Positions 20,779-27,745 are shown, numbered from the stretch's first letter. The stretch: DNA of 64,000 nt from Thermodesulfobacteriota bacterium (GCA_049320885.1 JBMORA010000045.1:18511-82510); one strand, 5' to 3'. Made by a program: numbers and translations. Notes: generated by a model from the letters alone, not told the origin.

Positions 20779-21594
20779 TCAGTTTTTCGCCTTTTTATAG
20801 TACCCCACGGCCTCCGGAAGATGCTCCTTGATTTTCCGGATCCGGGTCTCGTCCGACGGATGGGTGCTCAAAAATTCCGGCGGCTTGCCGCCGCCCGAAC
20901 CGCCGGACATTCTGGTCCAGAAATCCACGGCTGCCTGGGGGTCGTATCCGGCCATGGCCATGAAGATCAATCCCAGGCGGTCGGCCTCGCCTTCGTGCAG
21001 CCGGCTATAGGGCAGAATCACCCCCACCTGGGAGCCCGCGCCGTAGGCGGTCATCCATAGCTGGCGGGTTTCTTCCGGCTTGTTGGCCATGGCCGTGGAA
21101 AGGGCCACGCCGCCCAGCTGCACCAGAACTCCCTGGCTCATGCGCTCATCGCCGTGCCGGGCCACCGCATGGGCGATTTCATGTCCCATCACCACGGCCA
21201 GACCGGTTTCGTCCTTTGCAATGGGCAGGATTCCGGAATATACCACCACTTTCCCGCCGGGCATGCACCAGGCGTTCACTTCCTTGCTTTCCACCAGGTT
21301 GAATTCCCAGGCATATCCCTTCAACAAATGGGACAATTTTTCTTGCGCCATGTAGCGCTCCACCGCGCTCTGAATTTTTTTCCCCACATTCCGGACCATC
21401 TTCACCTGCTTTTCGTCCTTGCTGACCGCATTGGACTTCAGGAACTCGCCGTATTGCTGGTAGCTCATGGACATCATGGTCGAGGCAGGCACCAGATCGA
21501 GCTGCGTCCTTCCGGTCAACGGAACGGTGCTGCAGGCTGCCGCGAGGAACAGCCCCGGAAACAACAAGACCGTACGGAGAAATTTGGTGCTCAT
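20779..21594 (-). CDS. M48-family zinc metallopeptidase lipoprotein
   Basis: AAAC lipobox, NAWCMPGGK, GHEIAH, EADRLG, FLSTHP. Confidence 0.93.
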   Translation of the reverse strand: MSTKFLRTVLLFPGLFLAAACSTVPLTGRTQLDLVPASTMMSMSYQQYGEFLKSNAVSKDEKQVKMVRNVGKKIQSAVERYMAQEKLSHLLKGYAWEFNLVESKEVNAWCMPGGKVVVYSGILPIAKDETGLAVVMGHEIAHAVARHGDERMSQGVLVQLGGVALSTAMANKPEETRQLWMTAYGAGSQVGVILPYSRLHEGEADRLGLIFMAMAGYDPQAAVDFWTRMSGGSGGGKPPEFLSTHPSDETRIRKIKEHLPEAVGYYKKAKN

Positions 21595-21836
21595 GTGCTG
21601 TCAACTCCTTTACCGCTATGATTTCATTTCATGCTGGTTGTCGGCTCACCGCCAGACTCTTATGTATCCAAGACAACGGCATTTGTAAACCCGGACGCTC
21701 CCGAAGGGGCTGAAAAACCGTACGCGCCATCCCGGCGGTTTTTTCAAAAAAAATGCCGCGCGGAGCTTTACTTTTTCGATTTGATCATTGTGGTTCCATC
21801 CGGCGGAAGGTCGCCGGCGGCGGCTTTGTTTTATAA

Positions 21837-22244
21837 ATACCACACGGTATCGATTTAATACACCTGTTTTACACGGGAAGGTGCCTCCTCTATCAAAAAT
21901 CCAGGCCGGAGAACGCTCCGGGACACTGCGCGATGTATGTTTTTCGACCCATCACCTGCCGTCTTTTCGGTTTTTCCGTGACCCGGGATCGAATGGGCCG
22001 GGACAACCTTGCCGCCTGCCGAATCATCCGCCGGACCAGCTCCGCTCTTTTCGAAGCCGCCCGTTCATTTCAATCCGAAGCCCCTTGCTTGTCGGACATG
22101 GGGCTCCGCCTGTACTCCCTGGATCCGAATTCCGGTGACCGGTTGCTGCCCATCAACGAAGCCCTGGAGGCCGCCATCCGCCGCATGGGGCTGTACCTGC
22201 AGATATCCCATGGACGATTGCTGAGCGACCATACCGCAGCGTAC
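21837..22244 (+). pseudogene. 5'-truncated YkgJ-family Cys-cluster gene remnant, in frame with the downstream ParA gene
   Basis: After TAA at 21834-21836 the frame reads GRCLLYQ...GHCAMYVFRPITCRLFG (C-terminal YkgJ motif) with no N-terminal CxxxCxxCC and no RBS. The end boundary is inferred. Confidence 0.6.
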
Positions 22245-22308
22245 GGAGGCAAAAACGGAATTCAAGATAAGAAACGAGGTCGATACAACATATGGTATAT
22301 CTTTACTA

Positions 22309-22337
22309 TTGACACACAATGGAGACCATATTACGGT
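22309..22337 (+). promoter_or_regulatory. Putative sigma70 promoter for the ParA-CBM48 gene
   Basis: TTGACA-17 nt-TACGGT, about 105 bp upstream of the ATG at 22443. Confidence 0.45.
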
Positions 22338-22442
22338 ATCCCATCGGGTGATGTATTCAACAGCCGCGGCATCATCATCGGCCATTCCCCGGGCCGATGC
22401 AGACCGGTTTCAGCCGGAAGGACTCCACCAACCGGAGGCGCC

Positions 22443-23504
22443 ATGCGAATCATAGCGATATCGAATCAAAAAGGCGGATGCGGGAAAACCACCACGGCGG
22501 TGAATCTGTCGGCCTGTCTGGCCCGGAAGGGGAAAAGCGTGCTGTTGATCGATATGGATCCCCAGGCCCATTCCTCCATCGCCCTGAACCTGGATGTAAA
22601 GCAACTTGAAACATCCGTCCGCGATGCCCTGGGGGGACCCGAAACCGGCCGGACCCGGATGGACGAAATCGTCGTTGCCGTCAGCGAGCATCTCCATATC
22701 GCTCCGGCCGATATCACCCTGAGCGCCCTGGAACAACAGCTGGCCATGGTGCCGGGACGGGAAAACCGGCTCAAGGAAGCCATCGCCGGCATGGATCGGG
22801 AATATGAATATGTCATCGTGGATTGCCCGCCCAGCCTGGGCCTGTTGACCTTCAACGCCCTGATCGCCGCCACGGAAATCATCGTGCCCCTGGAAATGAG
22901 CTTGTTTTCCCTGCATGGCGTCAGCCGGTTGCTGGAAATCATCGGACTGGTCCGGGAAAAGACCGGTCATGAGCCGCGGATCCGGATCCTGGCCACCATG
23001 GTTGACGATAGAACCAGAATATCGCGGGAAGTCCTGGCGGATATCGGAAGCCATTTTAAGGAGGCCCTCTTCGCCACCCGCATTCATTTTACCGTCAAAT
23101 TGAAGGAAGCCGCCAGTTTCGGCAAATCCATCGTCGATTACGGCAGGGACAGCCGGGGCCGGAGAGACTACCTGGCCCTGACGGAAGAAGTGATCGCACA
23201 AGATAGCCGGCCGGCATCCTCCCGGTTACGGGAAAAAAGCACCATCATTACCAGACAGTTCACGTTGGATGCCCCCCGGGCGGCCTCGGTGAAAATCGTC
23301 GGCACGTTCAACGACTGGACTCCTTCCGAGAAGTCCGCCATGGAACAACGGTCTGACGGCGTCTGGACAAAAGAACTCTCATTGACGCCGGGCGATTATC
23401 AATACCGGTTTCTGGTGGACGATGTCTGGACGGAAGACCACGCCAATCCCCATGCCGTGGACAACGCCTTCGGGGGAAAAAATTCCTGTATCACCATCCG
23501 CTGA
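22443..23504 (+). CDS. Soj/ParA-family ATPase fused to a C-terminal AMPK-type glycogen-binding (CBM48) domain
   Basis: GGAGG RBS before MRIIAISNQKGGCGKTT (deviant Walker A), IDMDPQAH, VDCPPSLG. The C-terminus has VKIVGTFNDW...GVW...LTPGDYQYRFLVDDVWTED...NAFGGKNS. Confidence 0.9.
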   Translation: MRIIAISNQKGGCGKTTTAVNLSACLARKGKSVLLIDMDPQAHSSIALNLDVKQLETSVRDALGGPETGRTRMDEIVVAVSEHLHIAPADITLSALEQQLAMVPGRENRLKEAIAGMDREYEYVIVDCPPSLGLLTFNALIAATEIIVPLEMSLFSLHGVSRLLEIIGLVREKTGHEPRIRILATMVDDRTRISREVLADIGSHFKEALFATRIHFTVKLKEAASFGKSIVDYGRDSRGRRDYLALTEEVIAQDSRPASSRLREKSTIITRQFTLDAPRAASVKIVGTFNDWTPSEKSAMEQRSDGVWTKELSLTPGDYQYRFLVDDVWTEDHANPHAVDNAFGGKNSCITIR

Positions 23505-23515
23505 AAAGGAAGGCC

Positions 23516-23944
23516 ATGGAAAACAAACGCCTCGGCAGAGGGCTGGAACAGATTTCCGACCTGTTTTTATCCACCGGGAAAGAACGGCCATCCGCTCTTG
23601 ATGGTGCCATGTTCGCGGATCCCGTCGATGAATCCGGGTCCGCCCCTCCGCCGGACGGGGAGAAGGAATCCGCGCCCCCTGATCCCCATGGTGACGGACT
23701 GGCGGCCGATCTGTGCGAGGTGGAGGAACAGGTGAGTGTCCGGAAGAACATCACCTTCCCGCTCCTGCCCGACGCCCGGGAAAAGATGTGGCGGTTGGTT
23801 TGCCGGTATCTGGAATCCGGTTACGGTATCAAGCGGATCGAGTTGATCAAAAGCAGCAGAAACGGCAAGCCCGGCCATCAAAAGACCACGGAAGAGATCG
23901 TCTGTATCGGCACCGAAGACCCGCCGCCCGTCATGAATTTTTAG
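23516..23944 (+). CDS. Hypothetical ParA partner with ParB-type N-terminal KRLGRGL peptide
   Basis: Starts 11 bp after the ParA-CBM stop, AAGGAAGG RBS, MENKRLGRGLEQISDLFLS, then an acidic Pro-rich linker and a small C-terminal domain. Confidence 0.8.
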   Translation: MENKRLGRGLEQISDLFLSTGKERPSALDGAMFADPVDESGSAPPPDGEKESAPPDPHGDGLAADLCEVEEQVSVRKNITFPLLPDAREKMWRLVCRYLESGYGIKRIELIKSSRNGKPGHQKTTEEIVCIGTEDPPPVMNF

Positions 23945-25196
23945 AACCGGCCGCAAGGGTCAGCCGCGTCATTTCATCCCCCCAGGCCAGCGCATCCCGG
24001 AAAGCCTTTCTGACCTTCCCACCGTCGAGTCCCAGATTTTGAATGGCTTTTTCCGCCGCGTCCCACTGGCCTTCCTCGATGATTTCCGACAGTCGCAGGA
24101 GCGGAGCGTATTCATTGTTCGCATCCCGGCACAGGGCGGATTTCAGTTTGTCCTCCAGGGGCAGGTATTGGACGATTTCCGGCATGGGACGGTTGATCAT
24201 GGCGTCCAGCAGGGAGAACATTCCCAGCAGAAACAGGCTTTCCGGATTGAAGCCCCAGAAATCGTGGTCTCTTGCGATCTGTTCCAGGAATTTGCCCCGC
24301 TGGGCTGACAGCACCACCAATTCCGAGCCTTTCTGGCTCTGGGCCATGTCGTTCAGCACCACGACCCGGACCCAGTTCCGCATTTTTTTCCAGCCCAGCA
24401 TGTTGATGGCGTCCCGGATGGACTGGATCTTCTGACGAAAGCCATAGGCAGCGGAATTGATATAGGACAGCAACCGGAAACTGATGGAAACATCCGTGCG
24501 GATGGCCTCGCTCAGTCGTTCCAGATCAGGGTCTTCCTGTTCGATCAGACGCATCAACTGCAGGCGGCTCACCTGATTGGACGATAGTTTTTTCACGCTG
24601 ATCTGTTCCGGCTGCTTGAAATATCCGCCCTGAAACAACTGAAAACCCACATCCTTGCAGACCGTCATCAGGGGCTGGCTCTGGACCTGTCCGGCCAGGG
24701 ACAGACAACCGAAGGGCTCGATCTTTTTCTGGAATCCGTTCAATTCATCCCGGTTTTGTCCGGCGACTTCCACATGGACGATGTCCGCGATTTTCAACAG
24801 GGATTCAGGCGTGGCTCCACCCGCCGCCTCCACCACCAGCATATATCCGTCGGCTTTCAATTGGGCGAGGGTGTCCTCGAATCCCGGTTCGCCGGCGGGG
24901 CGGCCGAGAATTTTCACCGCCGTCCGCTTCGGTGGCAGCGCATACGGCAGTTTGTCCAATACATTTTTGGCCGAGAACCGGACCATGATTTTCCGTCCGT
25001 GGTCCAGCATCTGCTGCAGGCCCATGTAAGTGCCGGAAGCCAGGGTGCCGGCCACCGTGTCCGTATCGAACTCGACGGCCGCGAGCTGTCCGGCTCCGGA
25101 AACCGCGAAGAGTTCATATCCCCACAGATGCTGTTCGGCGTCGAAAATCGGCTGTCGCGCCAGGGATAATGCTGCGACCTCTTTCCCAGTTGTCAT
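23931..25196 (-). CDS. Degenerate EAL plus HDOD domain protein (YuxH-like)
   Basis: LARQPIFD, GYELF, FQGGYF; HDOD motifs DVSISFRLLSYINSA and LFLLGMFSLLDA. Confidence 0.88.
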   Translation of the reverse strand: MTTGKEVAALSLARQPIFDAEQHLWGYELFAVSGAGQLAAVEFDTDTVAGTLASGTYMGLQQMLDHGRKIMVRFSAKNVLDKLPYALPPKRTAVKILGRPAGEPGFEDTLAQLKADGYMLVVEAAGGATPESLLKIADIVHVEVAGQNRDELNGFQKKIEPFGCLSLAGQVQSQPLMTVCKDVGFQLFQGGYFKQPEQISVKKLSSNQVSRLQLMRLIEQEDPDLERLSEAIRTDVSISFRLLSYINSAAYGFRQKIQSIRDAINMLGWKKMRNWVRVVVLNDMAQSQKGSELVVLSAQRGKFLEQIARDHDFWGFNPESLFLLGMFSLLDAMINRPMPEIVQYLPLEDKLKSALCRDANNEYAPLLRLSEIIEEGQWDAAEKAIQNLGLDGGKVRKAFRDALAWGDEMTRLTLAAGSKNS

Positions 25197-25246
25197 GGCG
25201 TCTCCTTTGTCATCAAGTGTTGATCCGCCGCCCGGACCGTCCCGTT

Positions 25247-27745
25247 TTACAGCGGCAGGGGTTTCATCCCCCAGATATTTCTGGCGTACTCCATCACCGC
25301 CCGGTCACTGGAGAATTTCCCCATGTTGGCGGTGTTCAGGATGGACCGTCGCGCCCAGTCCTCCTGGTTCTGATAGGCCAGGCTGACCTGTTCCTGGGCC
25401 TCGATGTAGGAACGGTAATCCGCCAGCACCATGTAATAGTCCCCGTGATCCATCAACGACTGGATGATCGGTGAAAACAGCCAGGGTTCGGCGGGGGAGA
25501 AATACCCGTTGTTGATCATTTCCAGCACCTTTCTCAGTTCCGCATCCTGGCGATAGATATCCCGCGGGTTGTATCCGCCGCCGCGCATCTGGTCCACTTC
25601 ATGGGATTTCATCCCGAAAATGAAGATATTGTCCGGCCCCACCTCCTCGAGAATTTCGACATTGGCCCCATCCATGGTGCCGATGGTCAAGGCGCCGTTG
25701 AGGGCGAATTTCATGTTGCCCGTGCCCGACGCTTCCATGCCGGCGGTGGAAATCTGCTCTGACAGCTCCGCGGCCGGAATAATCTTTTCCGCCTGGGAAA
25801 TGCAATAGTTCGGCAGGAAAATAACCTTCAGTTTGCCACGCACTTCCGGATCACCGTTGATTTTTTCGGCAATGGAATTGATCAGTTTGATGATCAGCTT
25901 GGCGCGATAATAAGCGGGCGCCGCCTTGCCTGCGAAAATCACCGTGCGGGGGGCAATGGGGGCCGTCGAACCCTCGATGATCCGGCAGTAGAGAGTGATC
26001 ACATGCAGGGCGTTCAGGAGCTGCCGCTTGTATTCGTGGATCCGTTTGACATGCACATCGAACAGGGTATCCGGATTGACCCCCATCCCGGTTTTACGCA
26101 AAATATAGCGCGCCAGGCGTTTCTTGTTGTTGCGCTTCACCGCCAGCCAGGCGGAGCGGAACGCGGCGTCCCCGGCATACGGGATCAGCCGCTTCAACTG
26201 ATCCAGCTCCGTGACCCATCCCGGGCCGATGGTCCCGGTGATCAGTTCCGACAGTTCCGGATTGGCCTGACGGAGCCAGCGCCGGGGGGTGATGCCGTTG
26301 GTGACGTTTTTCAGCTTGCCGGGAAACACCCGGTCGAATCCGCTGAACATGCCCTCTTTCAAGATGCGGCTGTGCAGCTCCGCCACCCCGTTCACCGAGT
26401 GGCTGCCGATGATGGCCAGATAGGCCATGCGCACTTTCTTGACATCGCCCTCCTGAATGATGGACAGCCGGGACAGCAACTCGGGCTGATCCGGGTACCG
26501 CTGTTTGATGTCCTCCAGGAACCGGTGGTTGATCTCGTAGATGATTTCCAGATGCCGGGGCAACAGACGGCCGATCAGGGACACCGGCCAGGTCTCCAGG
26601 GCCTCGGGCATGACCGTATGATTCGTGTAGGCAAAGGTTCTGGTGCAGATCCCCCAGGCATCCTCCCATTCCAGCCCCTCCTCGTCGATGAGCAGGCGCA
26701 TGCATTCCGGAATCGCGATGGCCGGGTGGGTGTCGTTCAGCTGGATGGCCACGTAATCCGGAAAATACACGAAGGACTGTTGCTGTTTCCGGTATCTCCG
26801 AAAAATGTCCTGCATGGTGGCGGAAACGAAAAAATATTGCTGCCGCAGCCTCAGGGTCCGGCCCTGCTCCTGCTCGTCACTGGGATACAGCACCTTGGAA
26901 ATGGTCTCGCTCAGCACCTTGTTTTCCACGGCGCCGATATAGTTGCCCTGGTTGAAATAATCCAGGTTGAATTCCCGGCTCGATTTGGCGGTCCAGAGCC
27001 GCATGTTGGTGACAAAATCGTCGCCGTACCCGGGAATCAGGATGTCACAGGGCATGGCCATGACCCCTTCCGTATCCACCCAGCGGCAGCGCCTCCTGCC
27101 TTCCACATCGGTGTATATCTCCGAACGGCCGTAAAAACGCACGGTATACAGCTGTTCGCGCCGCTTGATTTCCCAGGGATTGCCGCGCCTCATCCAGTTG
27201 TCGCTCTGTTCCTGCTGGTAGCCGTTCACCAGTACCTGATGGAAGATGCCGTAATCGTAACGGATGCCGTAGCCGTAGCCCGGCAGACGCAAGCGCGCCA
27301 TGGAATCCATATAGCAGGAGGCCAGCCGTCCCAATCCGCCGTTGCCCAACCCGGAATCCCACTCTTCCTCCTCGATGTCGTCCAGGTCGAATCCGATGTC
27401 GCGGGTCGTATCCGCGGCCGCCTTTTCCATGCCGAGACTGATCAGGTAGTTCTTGAGAAAACGCCCGGGAAGAAATTCCAGGGAGAGATAATAGACCCGT
27501 TTGGCGAGGCTGTCATAACAGGCCCGCTGGGTCTTGATCCATTTCTGAATCAGGCGTTCCCGCAGGCTGAAAGCCAGGCCGGTGAAACAGCTGTATCGGT
27601 TGGGCATATCCGGATCGCCGCCGAGGGTGGACAAAATATGACGCCGGATGTCCTCATTCAGATGCCGGATGTCTTCTTTCGGTCCGCCTGGCTCCGTCTT
27701 CCCGCCCGGCTCCATGGGGTTATCGGATGGTGAACGCTTGGGCAT
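25247..27745 (-). CDS. glgP: Glycogen/alpha-glucan phosphorylase
   Basis: LGNGGLGRLASC, QLNDTHP, KRIHEYKRQLLN, EASGTGNMKF (PLP Lys). GGAGG RBS before MPKRS at 27745. Confidence 0.96.
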   Translation of the reverse strand: MPKRSPSDNPMEPGGKTEPGGPKEDIRHLNEDIRRHILSTLGGDPDMPNRYSCFTGLAFSLRERLIQKWIKTQRACYDSLAKRVYYLSLEFLPGRFLKNYLISLGMEKAAADTTRDIGFDLDDIEEEEWDSGLGNGGLGRLASCYMDSMARLRLPGYGYGIRYDYGIFHQVLVNGYQQEQSDNWMRRGNPWEIKRREQLYTVRFYGRSEIYTDVEGRRRCRWVDTEGVMAMPCDILIPGYGDDFVTNMRLWTAKSSREFNLDYFNQGNYIGAVENKVLSETISKVLYPSDEQEQGRTLRLRQQYFFVSATMQDIFRRYRKQQQSFVYFPDYVAIQLNDTHPAIAIPECMRLLIDEEGLEWEDAWGICTRTFAYTNHTVMPEALETWPVSLIGRLLPRHLEIIYEINHRFLEDIKQRYPDQPELLSRLSIIQEGDVKKVRMAYLAIIGSHSVNGVAELHSRILKEGMFSGFDRVFPGKLKNVTNGITPRRWLRQANPELSELITGTIGPGWVTELDQLKRLIPYAGDAAFRSAWLAVKRNNKKRLARYILRKTGMGVNPDTLFDVHVKRIHEYKRQLLNALHVITLYCRIIEGSTAPIAPRTVIFAGKAAPAYYRAKLIIKLINSIAEKINGDPEVRGKLKVIFLPNYCISQAEKIIPAAELSEQISTAGMEASGTGNMKFALNGALTIGTMDGANVEILEEVGPDNIFIFGMKSHEVDQMRGGGYNPRDIYRQDAELRKVLEMINNGYFSPAEPWLFSPIIQSLMDHGDYYMVLADYRSYIEAQEQVSLAYQNQEDWARRSILNTANMGKFSSDRAVMEYARNIWGMKPLPL

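Follow-up and report, generated by a model that had tools for sequence, protein, structure and literature searches.

The window analysed here, a stretch of 64,000 nucleotides from a Thermodesulfobacteriota bacterium (GCA_049320885.1 JBMORA010000045.1:18511-82510), carries a gene that we call ParA-CBM, which encodes a ParA-type ATPase fused to a C-terminal carbohydrate-binding module (CBM) of the AMPK-beta/CBM48 type, followed, in a two-gene operon, by a gene for a small partner protein with a ParB-like N-terminal peptide. The best explanation for the fusion is a Soj-derived accessory ParA that carries its own cargo-binding module. Our leading proposal for its function, which we hold tentatively and at somewhat less than an even chance, is the ATP-dependent, reversible bridging or positioning of glycogen particles on the nucleoid, reset by the partner through its ParB-type peptide. 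A previous interpretation made from the DNA alone (hereafter, the sequence-only reading) had claimed a Soj/ParA ATPase with a C-terminal domain of about 85 residues; the open reading frame, the motifs and the Pfam matches to AAA_31 and AMPK1_CBM all agree with it, and the frame, domains and motifs are confirmed at the coordinates below, counted from the first letter of the window. Loci, genomes and contigs are numbered with the prefixes L, G and C, the genome of the window being G000.

22443..23504 (+), ParA-CBM48 gene, 353 aa; Pfam, AlphaFold2 model, GGAGG before the ATG
22443..23207 (+), Soj-type ATPase domain, residues 1-255; PDB matches, residue conservation
23208..23246 (+), flexible linker, residues 256-268; low predicted local distance difference test score (pLDDT)
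23247..23501 (+), AMPK-beta/CBM48-type beta-sandwich, residues 269-353; Pfam, PDB alignment, pLDDT
23516..23944 (+), partner gene, 142 aa; no Pfam or NCBIfam match, profile family, ribosome-binding site
23516..23575 (+), ParB-like N-terminal peptide of the partner, residues 1-20, LGRGL core; alignment of partners and of the genome's own ParB
23717..23920 (+), conserved C-terminal domain of the partner, residues 68-135; predicted model

Pfam assigned residues 1-174 of ParA-CBM to AAA_31 (E 4.6e-53, 180.2 bits for a cut-off of 27) and residues 280-352 to AMPK1_CBM (47.0 bits, cut-off 26.8), with further matches to CbiA (72.1 bits, cut-off 25.4) and CBM_48 (25.4 bits, cut-off 22.4), so that in the scan which the sequence-only reading had proposed, AAA_31, CbiA and AMPK1_CBM all scored above their Pfam cut-offs. 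An AlphaFold2 model, for which an alignment of 36 family members served as input, has a mean pLDDT of 89.4 and consists of two domains, both well folded, with a disordered linker between them: a ParA fold up to residue 255, a linker in which residues 256-265 have a pLDDT below 50, and a beta-sandwich at residues 269-352 with a pLDDT above 90. The protein is a cytoplasmic ParA without signal peptide or membrane segment. We place the true start at 22443, because a ribosome-binding GGAGG lies just 5′ of this ATG (22434-22438) and the homologues are 353-358 aa long. The open frame extends upstream to 21933, and the database gene call has 523 aa, since the remnant of a CxxCxxCC (YkgJ-like) gene (21882-22203, +) stands in the same frame without a stop before the ParA start. 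This remnant is 50% identical to residues 106-212 of an intact 218-aa homologue at L001 and lacks the N-terminal half. A scan for promoters and terminators at the locus did no better than on shuffled sequence, and a search for centromere-like repeats in 21550-24100 found short two-copy matches only and no repeat array.

The sequence of the ATPase domain places it in the Soj-like branch of the ParA/MinD family of deviant Walker A ATPases. Its best PDB matches are ParA of Myxococcus xanthus (8ray, E 2.6e-50) and then Soj of Thermus (1wcv). The deviant Walker A motif with the signature lysine K10 reads KGGCGKT in all 36 family members, with an unusual cysteine at the place where the genome's own Soj has KGGVGKT. 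The Walker A′ aspartates D37 and D39 and the Walker B-type aspartate D127 are present, and together with K10, K15 and R190 they are invariant in 36/36 members. Substitution R238E in M. xanthus ParA abolishes non-specific DNA binding (PMC12462528). The equivalent position in ParA-CBM is K219, an offset that we inferred by setting the 8ray numbering from the D60A position, and it is K or R in 33/36 members. The claim that the basic nucleoid-binding positions are kept was thus borne out for K219 and for R190, and the basic residue at K219 supports a predicted DNA binding. Six pocket residues of M. xanthus ParA bind a peptide of ParB (PMC12462528), and in the alignment to 8ray they correspond to Q98, L132, L134, F137, L169 and T174 of ParA-CBM. 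Four of the six (L132, L134, F137 and L169) keep a hydrophobic side chain, while V116 and L192 of the M. xanthus pocket are replaced by Q98 and T174. Two altered residues relative to a chromosomal ParA would fit a dedicated partner. Neither of the NCBIfam models that bear on the matter was reached: ParA_partition, an equivalog, gave 113.3 bits for a cut-off of 180 and minD_bact gave 51.9 for a cut-off of 212.9. The genome also holds a canonical Soj, 39% identical to ParA-CBM, which sits on contig C27 beside the only ParB_N match of the genome (E <= 0.001), and at least 7 other ParA-like matches lie elsewhere. Because this separate Soj-ParB pair is on another contig, we regard ParA-CBM as an accessory, or orphan, ParA.

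For the C-terminal tail, a phmmer search of the PDB ranked the CBMs of AMPK beta-1 and beta-2 first (top match 1z0n, beta-1, E 7.6e-6), followed by GlgB, pullulanase and SEX4. The alignment to 1z0n/1z0m pairs FNDW, YQYRFLVDDVW and GGKNS with the AMPK motifs, which upholds the likeness to the AMPK beta CBM that had been read from the sequence. The sugar contacts of AMPK beta-1, which we take to be W100, K126, W133, L146 and N150 in a numbering that we likewise assume, align to W292, R322, W329, F343 and N347, a pairing that supposes that the PDB chain begins at residue 68. Both tryptophans, W292 and W329, are invariant in 36/36 members from several phyla, position 322 is R or K in 33/36, and N347 is present in 30/36 with D in 5 more. 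By alignment, then, the five sugar-contact positions of AMPK are conserved or conservatively replaced in the family, and their retention in 36 members of several phyla points to a conserved ligand. Over 630 pairs the ATPase has a mean pairwise identity of 0.49 and the CBM one of 0.43, so the CBM is only modestly more divergent. The module resembles the AMPK beta CBM (1z0m/1z0n) and CBM48 in its best PDB match and its contact residues and differs from them in being fused to a ParA ATPase rather than to a kinase scaffold or a glucan enzyme; it is a putative binder. The same genome encodes a stand-alone 130-aa AMPK1_CBM/CBM48 protein (G000:C64, L086:6893-7282, -; 56.3 bits) that is 44% identical to the ParA tail and lies outside any glycogen cluster. 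Stand-alone CBM-like open frames of about 130-160 aa also occur in the carriers G001, G030, G031, G032 and G033.

The partner begins MENKRLGRGL. It had been described as a co-oriented 142-aa protein starting with KRLGRGL, and it is indeed found 11 nt after the stop of ParA-CBM with a ribosome-binding site of its own (AAGGAAGG, 23506-23513). It matched nothing in Pfam or NCBIfam, which covers ParB_N, helix-turn-helix (HTH), nuclease, NADase and peptidase families. A word-based search found three relatives, and a profile built from five homologues brought up 98 cluster representatives, of which 71 had E <= 1e-10. The family consists of an LGRGL...FLS peptide, a variable linker and a conserved domain some 70 aa long. 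In most short partners the linker holds four cysteines in an insert (C..C ... C ... C), which is possibly metal-binding and which is absent from the partner of the window and its closest relatives. In the predicted model the C-terminal domain has a pLDDT of 93-97 over blocks covering residues 71-130, with a helix at 87-100 and a hairpin at 107-132. No similar fold was found by Foldseek in the PDB at E <= 0.001; the wide VIA search gave a best Z of 2.1, and the ESM Atlas gave no usable feature match and structure rows below threshold. The LGRGL core is common to the partner and the N-terminus of the genome's own ParB. In the partner it is followed by I13, L16 and F17, which fits the pattern of ParA-binding peptides, a central Arg or Lys with hydrophobic flanks, and L10 and F17 are the only invariant columns among 20 aligned partners of three types. 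These comparisons support a ParB-type N-terminal peptide in the partner with a predicted activating role.

To our knowledge, next to nothing is known about how bacteria organise their glycogen granules or partition them. A ParA that has a glycogen-binding module built in is thus a concrete candidate for their placement, and one open to testing. The cycle that we envisage would begin with ATP-bound ParA-CBM, which would dimerise and bind the nucleoid non-specifically. Each subunit would carry an alpha-glucan-binding CBM48 on a flexible tether of about 12 residues, and the dimer would then bridge a glycogen particle to DNA through two sugar-binding sites. Stimulation of ATP hydrolysis would release the tether, with the peptide-bearing partner acting as the reset. 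As a net effect, glycogen particles on the nucleoid would be reversibly anchored, spaced or inherited, perhaps in coordination with the phosphorylase encoded nearby.

Several known systems resemble parts of this scheme. With ParABS the window shares an ATPase nearest to M. xanthus ParA 8ray, the signature lysine, the basic residue at the R238 position and part of the ParB pocket, as well as a partner whose LGRGL peptide recurs in the genome's own ParB. It differs from ParABS in that the partner has no ParB_N or HTH domain, there is no repeat array, and the ATPase bears an added CBM, has KGGCGKT instead of KGGVGKT and Q98/T174 in the pocket, and falls below the ParA_partition cut-off. A C-terminal membrane helix is the surface-binding appendage of MinD. 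ParA-CBM would be comparable to the MinD/MinE pair in having a C-terminal surface-binding appendage, whose avidity should rise upon ATP-dependent dimerisation, and a small partner; the appendage is an amphipathic helix there and a folded CBM here, and the sequence in the window is Soj-like. MinE's N-terminal region stimulates hydrolysis by MinD (PMC12462528). In McdAB, a nucleoid-bound ParA-type ATPase spaces carboxysomes, a non-DNA cargo of the cytoplasm, with the help of a small, fast-evolving partner (PMC8359340), and the same logic is proposed for our pair, although in McdAB it is the adaptor that binds the cargo whereas here the ATPase bears the cargo domain, and the cargo would be a polysaccharide.

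The best 120 protein matches to ParA-CBM all carry PF16561. A survey of species-representative genomes retained 80 loci, 35 of them full-length including the CBM; the tails were inspected in these 35, leaving aside the other 45. The full-length loci are labelled Desulfobacterota/Deltaproteobacteria, Myxococcota, Omnitrophota, Planctomycetota, Nitrospirota, Acidobacteriota, Latescibacterota and Krumholzibacteria, and some metagenome-assembled genomes (MAGs) labelled Spirochaetaceae also carry the fusion. It occurs under at least 7 phylum labels. One full-length locus, L020, is truncated in translation. The co-occurrence with an LGRGL-type partner, a survey that the sequence-only reading had suggested, holds widely: a co-oriented gene with a related N-terminal peptide follows in 26/35 full-length loci, with the variants LGRGL...FLS, R.L.DVLHYF.PE and L.QF.HLFLS. 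Six more loci have, upstream, a gene for a single-pass membrane protein of about 195 aa whose cytoplasmic N-terminus bears a Y.HLA.VYLG-like motif that resembles the partner peptide. No partner was found in L003, L004 and L020 among the 35. The six genes for the membrane protein are the following:

L008:1469-2098, upstream membrane-protein gene
L017:3433-4026, upstream membrane-protein gene
L018:2099-2698, upstream membrane-protein gene
L019:5397-5981, upstream membrane-protein gene
L023:5380-5952, upstream membrane-protein gene
L034:541-1122, upstream membrane-protein gene

The genomic contexts vary with the lineage. Five of the six Omnitrophota/Planctomycetota-type loci have a co-oriented GH57 gene two genes upstream, and these loci lie near polysaccharide-export genes (Alginate_exp, Poly_export, Wzz/GNVR); they also have, downstream, a very basic protein whose end is EF-Tu-domain-2-like (sub-threshold in Pfam). 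The Latescibacterota-type loci are accompanied by SBP_bac_5, DUF212, a peptidase and ClpB, and the Myxococcota-type loci by an ECF sigma factor, DsbA and PGM_PMM. Upstream of the latter (L003, L024, L029 and L005, for example), genes recur that encode a MoxR-like AAA_5 ATPase accompanied by a VWA protein, an ATP-cone protein, an M48 peptidase and Ppx/GppA; the window, too, has an M48 peptidase gene upstream of ParA-CBM. Counting glgP in the lineage of the window and GH57 in the Omnitrophota type, two independent genomic links to alpha-glucan enzymes are supported. The PGM_PMM genes, at a distance of 2-5 kb in 13 loci of the Myxococcota type, we rejected as evidence of a link to glucans, because they could be phosphoglucosamine mutases and unrelated genes stand between. 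The Myxococcota-type partner, of about 260 aa and without a P-loop, was considered as a possible degenerate ParA; it had no Pfam match at E <= 0.05, and hhalign aligned it to the ParA-CBM family over a topologically sensible region with a probability of 2.5% (E 0.019).

Within the window, the pair faces two genes on the opposite strand:

23931..25196 (-), HDOD-domain gene; Pfam HDOD, E 3.1e-17
25247..27745 (-), glycogen phosphorylase GlgP; Pfam Phosphorylase, 1093.6 bits

The HDOD gene is convergent with the pair and overlaps the 3′ end of the partner gene by 14 nt. An EAL/HDOD gene and glgP had been named as the genes on which the pair converges; HDOD and glgP stand, and for EAL Pfam gave no match at E <= 0.01, the N-terminal 200 residues of the protein being EAL-like by eye. 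Upstream of ParA-CBM are the CxxCxxCC-gene remnant and the M48 peptidase gene (20779-21594), and other neighbours include genes of the tricarboxylic acid cycle, thiamine and two-component systems. L082, from the same genus, and L001, from a MAG labelled Desulfosudis, have ParA-CBM, partner, HDOD and GlgP in the same order as the window; the adjacency to HDOD and glgP is confined to the lineage of the window. A query with HDOD found no orthologue in G067, a genome of the same family without the fusion. Comparison of the window proteins with their orthologues in L001/G001 and in L082/G144 (same genus) gave the following identities:

GlgP: L001/G001 81%, L082/G144 89%
M48 peptidase: L001/G001 78%, L082/G144 82%
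Response regulator: L001/G001 75%, L082/G144 83%
HDOD: L001/G001 66%, L082/G144 84%
ParA-CBM: L001/G001 57%, L082/G144 75%
Histidine kinase: L001/G001 56%, L082/G144 70%
Partner: L001/G001 49%, L082/G144 57%
Chromosomal Soj: L001/G001 87%, L082/G144 89%

From these identities we conclude that the pair forms an accessory module which evolves fast and yet holds a stable place in its lineage. Its position also suggests that the system might be a switch rather than a positioning device: glycogen or maltodextrin bound to the CBM would sequester or regulate the ATPase and so couple the state of the stores to a nucleoid-linked process or to the control of GlgP. The CBM is of the type found in AMPK beta, a loose analogue of such a glucan-status switch; the convergence and overlap with an HDOD signalling gene and glgP are conserved in three genomes; and a cargo-binding domain on the ATPase itself is atypical for a ratchet. 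Cyclic di-GMP has been linked to glycogen breakdown elsewhere (PMC9530166), which we count in favour of a switch as well. No output domain or target is evident, however, the adjacency to HDOD and glgP is limited to the lineage of the window, and the carriers without glucan genes described below would be left unexplained. We consider a switch unlikely.

To test the link to glycogen, we searched 34 carrier genomes for the relevant genes, namely the genome of the window and those of 33 loci; L006, which nearly duplicates L005, and L020, which is truncated, were set aside. GT5 glycogen synthase (PF08323) was found in 21/34 carriers, phosphorylase (PF00343, E <= 1e-10) in 16/34 and GH57 (PF03065, E <= 1e-10) in 14/34, and many of these genomes have CBM48-bearing enzymes. 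The genome of the window is fully equipped for glycogen, with GT5 synthases, a GlgB and four matches to phosphorylase, which speaks for the positioning of glycogen. Its own glycogen cluster (G000:C9, L087:3732-9856, on one strand) comprises a DUF3417-type alpha-glucan phosphorylase, a GT5 synthase and GlgB and adjoins a gene for a hybrid histidine kinase that binds cyclic nucleotides (cNMP); besides the phosphorylase gene of L087 there are three more full-length ones, that of the window included.

A number of observations weigh against the positioning of glycogen as the function of the pair. Nine of the 34 carriers (G006, G008, G010, G015, G019, G023, G024, G025 and G027) gave no PF08323, PF00343 or PF03065 match at the thresholds applied, and their PF02922, if any, is ParA-CBM itself. 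The sequence-only reading had regarded homologues common in genomes without glycogen synthesis genes as contrary to its proposal, and this is in part what we found. G015, a 5.0-Mb record labelled 'chromosome', holds one alpha-amylase-family gene and a weak GH57 match (PF00128 was searched in five genomes, four of them among the nine), and in the five genomes searched for them GT3 synthase was absent and GlgC stayed below the cut-off. Some absences in the MAGs may be assembly gaps. In a sample of 151 genomes drawn evenly from the taxonomic order, with 13 candidates scored per genome, the fusion occurred in only five, four full-length copies and one truncated. Since 12 of 14 control genomes have glycogen genes, glycogen does not in general require the fusion. 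Within the same family, a second genus is without the fusion. Two of the carriers in the order, L084 and L085, have not the short partner but the long type that lacks a P-loop, and the ParA-CBM of L083 (G080:C34), also from this order, breaks off within the CBM soon after the second conserved tryptophan and may be a decaying or variant gene. In the pair of genomes that includes G001, the ATPase domain alone is 59% identical to its orthologue, compared with 87% for Soj. Classical ParA systems have the activator located on the cargo. Here it is the ATPase that carries the cargo-binding domain. Taken together, the nine carriers, the 5/151 distribution and the fast evolution count against a glycogen role that is obligatory.

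The nine carriers without detected alpha-glucan genes all keep both tryptophans of the CBM, which is what would be expected if the CBM48-like domain bound a ligand other than an alpha-glucan, either another polysaccharide or a protein, and the link to glycogen were incidental. The proximity of the Omnitrophota loci to the polysaccharide-export genes mentioned above points in the same direction. Against such a ligand are the conservation or conservative replacement of the five AMPK sugar-contact positions and the adjacency to GlgP and GH57 in two separate lineages. Glycogen is the main cytoplasmic glucan, and a cytoplasmic ParA without signal peptide or membrane segment would have it at hand. 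We therefore rate a non-glucan ligand as improbable, the least favoured of the explanations that we weighed.

The architecture itself is not new. A full-text literature search for AMPK1_CBM together with ParA yielded a single relevant work, a preprint, and a search for ParA and glycogen granules yielded none. The statement in the sequence-only reading that no ParA system for glycogen had been characterised thus stands as far as experiments go, but the fusion had already been catalogued and given an immune interpretation. In the available text of the preprint, the CBM-containing system 'ConB5' is described as a ParA with AMPK1_CBM that is sporadic in several phyla, with optional extensions in the form of a single-pass membrane protein that has a CBM and is encoded upstream, or of an inactive second ParA and an inactive restriction endonuclease (REase) (Li, Burroughs and Aravind, 2026, bioRxiv 10.64898/2026.10.19.760177). 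From the CBM's fast divergence, the same authors propose that carbohydrate sensing leads to ParA multimerisation in immunity (bioRxiv 10.64898/2026.10.19.760177). The window agrees with that description in having a ParA with a C-terminal AMPK1_CBM scattered over phyla, and the described extensions resemble the membrane protein of the Omnitrophota-type loci and the partner of about 260 aa of the Myxococcota-type loci. It differs in having neither optional extension and a 142-aa LGRGL partner instead, and also in its housekeeping context, whereas the preprint proposes immunity. The short LGRGL partner appears to be undescribed in the preprint text that was available.

Applied to our pair, the proposal would mean a carbohydrate-sensing conflict system, in which the CBM detects a glycan of infection or the depletion of glycogen and multimerisation of the ParA limits the invader. 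Apart from having been put forward for the same architecture, this would account for the sporadic distribution in the order (5/151 genomes), for the interchangeable partner modules (the short LGRGL protein, the protein of about 260 aa without a P-loop and the membrane protein), for the faster evolution of ParA-CBM relative to Soj and its neighbours, and for the carriers without glycogen genes. A further point in its favour comes from the Nitrospirota-labelled locus without a recognisable partner, where a gene for a patatin-like phospholipase (L004:7327-8226) directly follows ParA-CBM and matches a PADLOC effector model (E 6e-13), the sole sign of a defence-like neighbour that we noticed. It is one of three PADLOC matches at E <= 1e-10 among 137 neighbours in 17 related loci; we read the other two, to TPR and ClpB, as generic. 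The window, on the other hand, has no effector domain, the partner being without a nuclease, NADase or peptidase match, and no defence-island context: the genes around the pair are of a housekeeping kind, and the locus keeps its synteny across genera. PADLOC 2.0 (2023), which predates ConB5, found no defence system among the 35 genes of the window; ParA-CBM gave only a P-loop-level match of 22.9 bits and the partner none. In conservation the CBM falls only a little short of the ATPase, and its ligand-contact tryptophans are invariant, which does not fit a sensor in an arms race, and the ParB-type activating peptide would point to an ATPase cycle of the positioning kind. An immune function seems to us unlikely for this pair.

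Of the explanations considered, we continue to prefer, with the caution stated at the outset, the reversible positioning of glycogen by ParA-CBM. ParA/MinD ATPases are a general means of placing large cytoplasmic objects, and if the proposal is true, bacteria would actively control the location and inheritance of their storage granules, and the ParA/MinD family would have its first cargo that is neither protein nor DNA. The immune alternative sharpens the question, as the same two genes predict either an altered granule distribution or protection from phages. For the family, the window adds to the preprint text available to us a type of partner that combines the LGRGL peptide with a small domain without fold match. 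This LGRGL partner would be a case of the activation peptide of ParB being reused outside DNA segregation.

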